A DNA stretch of 64,000 bases. It comes from a virus. Taxonomy: Duplodnaviria; Heunggongvirae; Uroviricota; Caudoviricetes. Made by a program: the position numbers. This document shows, piece after piece, positions 51,001-53,449 of the stretch. Every line of letters starts with the position of its first letter. The stretch's first letter is position 1. The stretch lies in the IMG/VR virus record IMGVR_UViG_2718218452_000012. The stretch is one strand, 5' to 3'.

Positions 51001-53449
51001 GTTCACGCATCAGGCGGATATCGTTAGCCCACCCTGCAAAATTCGGTTTTCTGGCTGATGGCGCGATAGTCTTCACCATGTCAAACATCCACTCTGCGGC
51101 GGTCAGGTCTTCTGCTGTCCCCCATTTGCTGCCGCTCTGAATTGCAGCATCAGGTTTCACCACAGAAAGGTCGTTTTCTGGCTGGTCAGAGGATTCGCCA
51201 GAATTCTCTGACGAATAATCTTTTCTATTTTCTTTTGTATTAGTGTCTTTTGTGTTCCCCTGTTTTGAGGGATAGCAATCCCCCAATTTGAGGGATGTTT
51301 TATCCCTCGTTTTAGGGGATTTTCCCTCGTTTTGAGGGATACACCATTCTGAGATGTTTTTATTTGGTCCAAACATGCCGCCTTGCTGCTTGATAATATT
51401 CATTCTGACGAGTTCTAACTTGGCTTCATTGCACCGTTTGACAGGTAACTTTGTAATCTCGCTAAGTTGAGAATCGGTGATTCTGTCCATTGGTTTATTC
51501 CACCCATAGGTTTTACGCAGAATGGCAAGCAGCACTTTAAACTGTCGCTTGGTCAGATCTGCGCCTGAATAAGCCTCAAGCAGCATATTTGATAGTCTGG
51601 CGTAACCATCATCGAGATCTGCCACATTACGCTCCTGTCCGGCAAAGTTACCTCTGCCGAAGTTGAGTATTTTTGCTGTATTTGTCATAATGACTCCTGT
51701 TGATAGTTCCAGTAATAACCTCAGAATTCCATCTGGATTTGTTCAGAACGCTCGGTTGCCGCCGGGCGTTTTTTATTGGTGAGAATCGAAGCAACTTGTC
51801 GTGCCAATCGAGCCATGTCGTCGTCGACGACACCCCATTCAAGAACAGCAAGCAGCATTGAGAACTTTGGAATCCAATCCCTCTTCCACCTGCTGATCTG
51901 CGACTTATCAACTCCCACAGCTTCCGCTGTCTTCTCAGTTCCAAGCATTGCGATTTTGTTAAGCAACGCACTCTCGATTCGTAGAGCCTCGTTGCGTTTG
52001 TTTGCACGAACCATATGTAAGTATTTCCTTAGATAACAATTGATTGAATGTATGCAAATAAATGCATACACCATAGGTGTGGTTTGAACCGCCCCGGAAA
52101 TCCTGGAGACTAAACTCCCTGAGAAAGAGGTAAACAGGATGACTAAAAATACTCGTTTTTCCCCCGAAGTCCGTCAGCGGGCGATTCGTATGGTTCTGGA
52201 AAGTCAGGATGAATATGACTCACAGTGGGCGGCAATTTGTTCCATTGCCCCAAAGATTGGCTGTACGCCGGAGACTCTGCGTGTCTGGGTTCGCCAGCAT
52301 GAGCGGGATACCGGGAGTGGTGATGGTGGACTCACCACCGCTGAACGTCAGCGTCTGAAAGAGCTGGAACGTGAAAATCGTGAACTGCGCCGCAGTAACG
52401 ATATCCTTCGCCAGGCTTCCGCTTATTTTGCGAAGGCGGAGTTCGACCGCCTCTGGAAAAAATAATGCCACTGCTGGATAAGCTGCGTGAGCAGTACGGG
52501 GTCGGACCGGTATGCAGCGAACTGCATATTGCCCCGTCAACGTATTACCATTGTCAGCAACAGCGACATCATCCGGATAAACGCAGTGCCCGTGCGCAGC
52601 ACGATGACTGGCTGAAGAAAGAGATACAGCGCGTATACGATGAAAATCACCAGGTATACGGTGTGCGTAAAGTCTGGCGTCAGTTGTTACGGGAAGGTAT
52701 CAGAGTGGCCAGATGCACTGTGGCACGTCTCATGGCAGTTATGGGACTTGCCGGTGTTCTCCGGGGTAAAAAGGTCCGCACTACCGTCAGCCGGAAAGCC
52801 GTTGCCGCATGCGACCGCGTAAACCGTCAGTTCGTGGCAGAACGTCCAGACCAGTTGTGGGTGGCTGATTTTACCTGGGTAAGCACATGGCAGGGCTTCG
52901 TTTATGTGGCGTTCATCATTGATGTGTTCGCCGGATACATCGTGGGATGGCAGGTCTCATCATCCATGGAAACAACATTCGTGCTGGATGCACTGGAGCA
53001 GGCGTTGTGGGCCCGTCGGCCGTCCGGCACAATCCATCACAGTGATAAAGGTTCTCAGTATGTATCGCTGGCCTACACGCAGCGGCTTAAGGAAGCCGGA
53101 TTACTGGCATCAACAGGGAGTACTGGCGACTCGTATGACAACGCGATGGCTGAGAGCATCAATGGTCTTTACAAAGCGGAGGTAATACACCGTAAGAGCT
53201 GGAAAAACCGGACAGAAGTGGAACTGGCCACACTAACGTGGGTGGACTGGTATAACAATCGACGATTGCTGGAAAGGCTGGGCCATATTCCTCCGGCAGA
53301 AGCAGAAAAAGCTTATTATGCTTCCATCGGAAATAATGATCTGGCAGCCTGAGTTCACAGATAAAACACTCTCCAGGAAACCCGGGGCGGTTCAGTTTAT
53401 TTTGATGCCCTTTTTCAGGGCTGGGATGTGTAAGAGCGGGAATGTCTTA

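Follow-up and report, generated by a model that had tools for sequence, protein, structure and literature searches.

An IS629-group insertion between nutR and cII of a lambda/434-hybrid prophage, probably weakening early phage expression rather than blocking it

The early rightward operon and its insertion

The window considered here is the whole 64,000-nucleotide stretch of the IMG/VR virus record IMGVR_UViG_2718218452_000012 (Caudoviricetes), and positions refer to it unless said otherwise. Its subject is an insertion sequence (IS) in the early rightward operon of a lambdoid prophage with 434-type immunity. Read along the minus strand, the order of parts is PR (53718), cro, nutR boxA, nutR boxB, the IS (53394 to 52085), cII, O and P. 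The promoter PR (TTGACA-17-GAAAAT, 53690-53718, minus strand) scores 10/12 in a promoter scan and sits where the phage 434 annotation places it; cro, of 434 type and encoding 71 amino acids (53447-53662, minus), is identified by its open reading frame (ORF), by Pfam and by the same annotation. The nutR boxA, CGCTCTTA (53431-53438, minus), is identical to lambda 38249-38256 and is the 'boxA right' of phage 434; the 15-nucleotide boxB hairpin, GCCCTGAAAAAGGGC (53407-53421, minus), matches lambda boxB exactly. A search for boxB finds two matches in the window, one in nutR and one in nutL, while none of 100 shuffled sequences yields two. On the far side of the IS lie cII (51721-52014, minus; 97 amino acids, Pfam Phage_CII, 1.8e-48) and the replication genes O (50789-51688, minus) and P (50091-50792, minus), all three intact.

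The inserted element (52085-53394, plus strand, 1310 bp) is an intact IS3-family insertion sequence of the IS629 group, as judged by its ends, its ORFs and its identity to annotated copies. The initial annotation had the start, the length and the family right, and had run the element on to 53397, a span that includes three nucleotides of target duplication; the element itself ends at 53394. Its termini are TGAACCGCCCCGG at the start and CCGGGGCGGTTCA at the finish, with TG...CA ends. The left inverted repeat (IRL, 52085-52109, plus) faces cII and the right one (IRR, 53370-53394, plus) faces nutR and cro. Pairing of the two 25-nucleotide arms gives 22/25 complementary positions (88%): the outer 13 bp, which are the starting sequence just given, pair perfectly and are followed by three mismatches, so that the repeats are not perfect over their length, as had first been stated, and imperfection of this kind is expected for an IS3-family element.

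Two ORFs are arranged as in that family. The first, orfA (52139-52465, plus; 108 amino acids), encodes the helix-turn-helix N-terminal part of the transposase (Pfam HTH_Tnp_1, E = 2.9e-12); orfB (52465-53352, plus; 295 amino acids), in the -1 frame relative to orfA, encodes the DDE integrase-core domain (Pfam rve, 1.5e-26; HTH_21; rve_3, 9.8e-12). A run of six A residues (52457-52462) at the orfA/orfB junction is the predicted point of a programmed -1 frameshift, and it falls within a match (52420-52536, plus) to the ALIL pseudoknot, Rfam RF01497, at 120.3 bits (gathering score, 50); the PGAP annotation of the IS copy in Escherichia coli strain C7, the closed genome that figures below, also reads 'programmed frameshift'. 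All of the family's features that can be read from sequence are present: a length within about 1.2-1.55 kb, inverted repeats ending 5'-TG...CA-3', two ORFs in the -1 relation, the helix-turn-helix and DDE domains, and a 3-bp target duplication.

Over its 1310 bp the element is 99.5% identical to two copies annotated as IS629 in the Shiga toxin 1 (Stx1) phage BP-4795 (AJ556162) and 98.3% identical to IS copies in many O157 Stx2a phages; it differs from an O157 IS1203-type copy by 53 substitutions and no insertions or deletions (95.95% identity). By comparison with annotated copies the isoform is IS629-like. Many E. coli chromosomes and plasmids contain full-length copies with 100% identity; among 5,426 complete E. 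coli genomes, 3,042 have related copies at a coverage of 80% or more, and the IS query matches up to 53 places per genome. So many identical copies in so many places are consistent with an active element, and this one is intact and probably still active.

The target site

The element is flanked by GTT on both sides, the left copy at 52082-52084 (AAC in phage orientation) and the right copy, adjoining IRR, at 53395-53397; the triplet corresponds to lambda 38290-38292 in an alignment to J02459. Removal of the IS and one GTT rebuilds an empty site, which was then used as a query. The restored site of 803 bp is 100% identical to that of at least 20 complete genomes with uninterrupted prophages, and at least 99% identical in 136; its 432-bp core is identical to phage 434 at 432 of 432 positions. 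Because the restored sequence is that of phage 434 and of sibling prophages, the two GTT copies are a true target duplication, as the initial annotation had it, and no chance match of 1 in 64. Its further statement that the flanks reconstitute the lambda stretch from nutR boxB to cII is borne out by the alignment as well, with two differences from lambda J02459 between boxA and the cII start.

The insertion point lies between nutR boxB and cII, 9 nucleotides past boxB (lambda 38266-38280) and 67 nucleotides ahead of the cII ATG (lambda 38360). That places it within rutB of the Rho-dependent terminator tR1, as annotated in the lambda record (38282-38301), so that 1.3 kb now interrupt the Rho-loading site of tR1; an unbroken rutA-boxB-rutB loading site with release sites between it and cII does not exist in the prophage that carries the IS. 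The IS had been described as parting PR-cro-nutR from tR1-cII-O-P. This holds for the tR1 release region and for cII-O-P, and needs correcting for tR1 itself, which is divided inside rutB rather than moved away whole.

Distribution and age of the insertion

A 2116-bp query spanning both junctions finds a contiguous match in one of the 5,426 complete E. coli genomes, that of strain C7, isolated from a cow (NZ_CP010240.1), at 100% identity. A 400-bp query for the left junction finds the exact site in C7 alone and, elsewhere, two different sites nearby. The prophage has integrated at the attachment site of lambda; ybhC, next to int, borders it on one side and ybhB on the other. Sibling prophages with 99.6-99.9% identity occupy the same chromosomal site in O103:H2, O121, O111:H2 and other strains, and the sibling in strain A1 has no IS in its early region. 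The products of cII, O, P, cro, cI, N and Q in C7 bear the same protein accessions as in the IS-free strain A1. Since C7 is the only one of the 5,426 genomes with the insertion and these proteins are unchanged relative to A1, the insertion is, on this comparison of sequences, recent, strain-specific and without subsequent decay.

Other prophages carry the same or a similar IS elsewhere. The sibling prophage of O103:H2 strain CEC12044 has two copies of the same IS (99.8-99.9% identical; 12449-13758 and 15039-16348 of the extracted locus), one in the kil-gam interval and the other within exo, as independent hits on one prophage lineage. In O157:H7 strain 2571, in a different prophage with 434-type cro and cI, an IS1203 copy (2502-3811 of the extracted locus) breaks the O gene within iteron-like repeats.

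Assembly of the window and other lesions of the prophage

No closed genome is colinear with the window. Positions 1-25000 correspond to C7 3.607-3.632 Mb; 28935-43256 to a different prophage, C7 4.153 to 4.138 Mb, reversed; 43252-43612 to 361 bp from the IS-bearing type of prophage, lying inverted in place; and 43613-64000 to C7 from 5,308,944 through the origin of the record to 19,295. At 28934/28935 the window switches from C7 ~3.636 Mb (plus) to C7 4.1527 Mb (minus), and the switch is the centre of a 1192-nucleotide inverted repeat (27743-30126; 99% identity) with zero spacer, enclosed by larger inverted repeats (24086-26065 versus 31670-33649; 1980 nucleotides, 94%). A palindrome that is so long and spacerless is unlikely to be stable, for which reason we suspect a fold-back misassembly there. 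The second discontinuity is more intricate: the esterase gene of the other prophage is cut off at 43256, the 361-bp segment (100% identical to the A1 prophage) follows in inverted orientation, and beyond it, at 43612/43613, the Q-proximal region of the IS-bearing prophage begins on the opposite strand. The chimeric ORF 41914-43287 that results is on record in no public assembly. These odd junctions look like fold-back misassemblies or complex prophage-prophage rearrangements.

It could be asked, then, whether the IS is itself a repeat copy misplaced in the assembly. Non-colinearity with closed C7, the fold-back-like junctions at 28934/28935 and 43612/43613 and the unrecorded chimeric ORF are the grounds for such a suspicion. 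Both IS junctions, the 3-bp duplication and the 2116 bp across them, however, are 100% identical in a separate RefSeq assembly of C7, and a misplaced repeat would not yield a clean target duplication; an artefactual placement is accordingly a far-fetched explanation.

Over 19.3 kb the last segment differs from the C7 RefSeq sequence at 10 positions, all within 57227-58181 (the kil-gam-bet region), which mark either a recombination patch or a polishing error. Among them, an extra C at 57603 alters the last residues of Gam (...TIAHHPG*) relative to the C-terminus of lambda Gam.

Q is intact (44818-45507, minus); lysis and head/tail genes do not come after it in the window. As a gauge of prophage integrity the late region of the window was set aside, given its broken colinearity with closed genomes and a junction ORF that no public assembly contains. 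The tape-measure gene of closed C7 carries a frameshift and measures only 1765 bp, versus 2580 bp in strain A1, and J is frameshifted too; these broken tail genes are probably a more serious problem for the prophage than the IS. The effector cargo of the C7 prophage lies next to ybhB, outside the window (record 5,278,857-5,285,110), and comprises the type III effector genes nleA, cif, nleH and nleB2 and a partial nleC; lpxR lies between the nin region and Q.

Early transcription, N antitermination and excision

The transposase genes are oriented antisense to transcription from PR, and the PR-sense strand of the IS contains 29% C versus 24% G. Intrinsic terminators on that strand of the IS are represented by just two weak 5-bp hairpins (53385-53373 and 52663-52648), no commoner than in shuffled sequence, on which account a strong intrinsic terminator was rejected. 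With no convincing terminator of that kind, polarity of the IS toward cII, O and P would be mainly Rho-dependent. Two other candidate effects were also discarded. An outward promoter that would restore cII-O-P expression was sought in a consensus scan of the minus strand, inside the IS and at the IRL junction, which found no promoter-like site, and the explanation developed below has no need of one. Refolding of nutR by the IS is contradicted by fold prediction, in which the boxB pairs form with probabilities of 0.98 or more ahead of the IS sequence.

What N requires at nutR is in place: boxA and boxB are as in lambda, the nut site is promoter-proximal to the IS, and the cognate N gene is intact (55151-55474, plus; 107 amino acids with a lambda-type arginine-rich motif; Pfam N36, 1.8e-26, and the C7 annotation). 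In the PL arm, nutL boxB, GCCCTGAAGAAGGGC (54979-54993, plus), is also an exact match to lambda boxB. Terminators placed downstream of a nut site are known to yield to N: wild-type N allows passage through a second Rho-dependent terminator situated beyond nutR/tR1 (PMC3526286), and the lambda r32 and r14 insertion elements, which enhance termination, leave the phage able to plaque on wild-type hosts and do no more than heighten its sensitivity to nus mutations (PMC4807359). The IS629-carrying Stx prophages phiPA2 and phiPA8 stay inducible (PMC10810198).

These precedents suggest how the interrupted operon may work. Without N, PR transcripts would cross 1.3 kb of probably untranslated RNA with more C than G, and Rho would be expected to stop most of them; cII-O-P would no longer receive the N-independent leak past tR1. 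Upon induction, N supplied from PL would be recruited to nutR, which is intact and precedes the IS, and would carry polymerase through the element; expression of cII, O, P and Q should continue, perhaps reduced and more dependent on N and the Nus factors. Since N-modified polymerase overrides Rho-dependent polarity and nutR lies upstream of the IS, a strong block is unlikely, and early phage expression is probably weakened rather than blocked. The efficiency with which N-modified polymerase would read through this IS is inferred from r32, r14 and the double-terminator constructs.

The opposite expectation deserves to be weighed in full. The initial annotation had early rightward transcription probably blocked or strongly polarised; in its sharpest form the proposal is that the IS is strongly polar even when N is present, leaving cII, O, P and Q silent after induction, so that neither replication nor lysis follows and the IS is a domesticating lesion. 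The addition of 1.3 kb of antisense, untranslated RNA richer in C than G to the PR transcript speaks for it, as do the disruption of the native tR1/rutB layout and the finding of IS629-type elements in or near the early regions of clearly decayed prophages (in the O gene of O157 strain 2571, and adjacent to cII in ATCC 43889 and O111 strains). Against these stand the intact nutR upstream of the IS, the intact N, the lack of a strong intrinsic terminator on the PR-sense strand, the capacity of N-modified polymerase to override downstream terminators and the viability of lambda r32 and r14 on wild-type hosts, and even a full block would not hold the prophage in the chromosome, the int/xis operon being untouched. 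We consider strong polarity in the presence of N unlikely.

Some features of the locus nevertheless count against easy read-through. The IS splits rutB and parts boxA and boxB from the downstream GT-rich 'boxC', GGTGTATG (52065-52072); boxC should be dispensable for the action of N. The extra 1.3 kb to be traversed could lower expression of O, P and Q enough to matter, nutL boxA carries a change of its first base that may affect the PL operon, and the analogy with r32 and r14 presumes how those insertions lie with respect to nutR. The nutL boxA in question (54963-54971) has GGCTCTTAA in place of the lambda CGCTCTTAA, and all else in nutL, boxB included, matches lambda.

Excision requires int and xis, which are transcribed from PL along with N. 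In this prophage int, xis and the other PL operon genes are annotated as intact, and the PL arm is untouched by the IS; that the insertion would help to lock the prophage in place, as had been proposed, does not follow. Loss of O and P expression would instead be expected to favour abortive induction or curing (excision without replication) over retention. The reading that we favour, with a probability of roughly 0.65, is that a recent IS629-group transposition into an effector-carrying lambda/434-hybrid prophage has produced a neutral to mildly attenuating strain polymorphism, which N would read through and which would not act as a lock.

The lysogeny side: pRE and cI

The IS also separates pRE from cI, an aspect that is absent from the initial annotation. 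The CII-activated promoter pRE (51992-52024, plus) is recognised by its CII-binding repeats TTGCN6TTGC (51992-52005) and its -10 element AAGTAT (52019-52024), at a place equivalent to pRE in phage 434; its start we take to be ~52031, on the assumption that the lambda start is at 38343. The 434-type repressor gene cI (53766-54398, plus; 210 amino acids with an S24 peptidase domain, by ORF and Pfam) lies beyond the far end of the IS, so that the pRE transcript enters IRL after 54 nucleotides and runs in the transposase-sense direction. CII-activated transcripts would thus have to cross the IS to reach cI, establishment of lysogeny by progeny phage may be weakened, and transposase expression may become coupled to CII activity. 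This pRE-side effect, which may occur, is argued from geometry alone. Maintenance of lysogeny is unaffected, since it proceeds via pRM.

An explanation that puts the main effect of the insertion here, and treats the consequences for PR as negligible, adds that transposase-sense RNA leaving IRR would be antisense to cro and run on into cI; establishment in progeny phage could be weaker, or repressor and anti-cro RNA could rise slightly in the lysogen. The geometry is suited to it, pRE being 54 nucleotides before IRL on the plus strand, in the same direction as orfA and orfB, and the scan of the IS in that direction, its end included, found no terminator-like site. The same geometry is, however, its whole support: the scan found no promoter-like site at IRR or in the flank, and maintenance through pRM is untouched. 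IS3-family transposase promoters, moreover, are weak. A predominantly lysogeny-side effect is quite improbable.

Just past cI, at the position of lambda rexA/rexB, lies an ORF (54323-54799) that is annotated in C7 as a hypothetical protein and may be an accessory gene expressed in the lysogen.

Comparison with known systems

In most respects this is an ordinary and already known event, a known element of a known family in its usual kind of target. IS629 generates duplications of 3-4 bp, 62% of its copies in O157 are in prophages, and its sub-types differ by 55-60 bp (PMC3271280). The present element resembles the IS629/IS1203/IS3411 group in its 1310-bp length, its TG...CA ends, its imperfect repeats of 25 nucleotides, its ALIL-linked orfA and orfB, its rve domain and its 3-bp duplication, and also in having a prophage, the group's preferred target, as its site. 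Its 53 substitutions relative to the O157:H7 IS1203-type copy are of the same order as the differences between published IS629 sub-types (PMC3271280). The importance of the insertion beyond strain typing is small; it is a further case of the scatter of the IS629 group in lambdoid prophages of cattle-associated pathogenic E. coli.

The nearest counterparts in position are in O157:H7 ATCC 43889 and in O111 strains such as E2855, in which the IRL of an IS629/IS1203 element adjoins the spacer upstream of cII in the same orientation. Their left ends are 15 nucleotides (ATCC 43889) and 32 nucleotides (E2855) closer to cII, equivalent to window positions ~52069 and ~52052, with the junctions at 2386 and 2242, respectively, of the extracted loci. 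They differ from the present prophage in that their cro/cI side is deleted and, in E2855, the IS is also truncated; the ATCC 43889 and O111 prophages are decay products, while the present one retains its duplication and the sequence on either side. IS ends lying so near to one another hint that the region is preferred, and that IS-mediated adjacent deletions are a means by which immunity regions are eroded.

A bolder proposal would make the ~70-nucleotide nutR-cII spacer a regional hot spot for IS629-type elements and the insertion a reversible regulatory switch. Three insertion points within 35 nucleotides, in the same orientation and in unrelated prophages, are what recommends it. If it were true, cII-O-P would be strictly N-dependent, with leaky expression of the replication genes removed; transposase would come under CII-activated pRE, with a burst of transposition at infection or induction; and clean removal by excision promoted by the IS-excision enhancer would be possible, since the duplication is intact. 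Three events are too few to call the spacer a hot spot, and the proposal is distinctly doubtful.

Among the Stx prophages, phiPA2 and phiPA8 are near-identical and differ mainly in the place of IS629, the position of which alters the frequency of spontaneous induction (PMC10810198). The effect there comes about through disruption of a methyltransferase gene, not through the nutR-tR1-cII spacer (PMC10810198). A comparable pairing is at hand for the present insertion: the C7 prophage with its IS and the A1 or OkiPb01675 prophage without it form a ready near-isogenic pair, which could be used to gauge N-independent read-through past tR1 in spontaneous induction and in the expression of an effector-carrying prophage.

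The closest functional analogues are the lambda r32 and r14 phages, of which r32 reportedly carries IS2 and r14 IS1, both located around cII in the early rightward operon. They share with the C7 prophage the insertion of such an element into the early operon and, it would seem, the override of added termination by N, viability on wild-type hosts being theirs (PMC4807359). They are laboratory isolates in lambda, whereas the C7 insertion involves another IS, at a different site in rutB, in a natural prophage of 434 immunity. As such, the C7 prophage is a natural counterpart of the classical IS-carrying lambda phages that showed N antitermination to override IS polarity.

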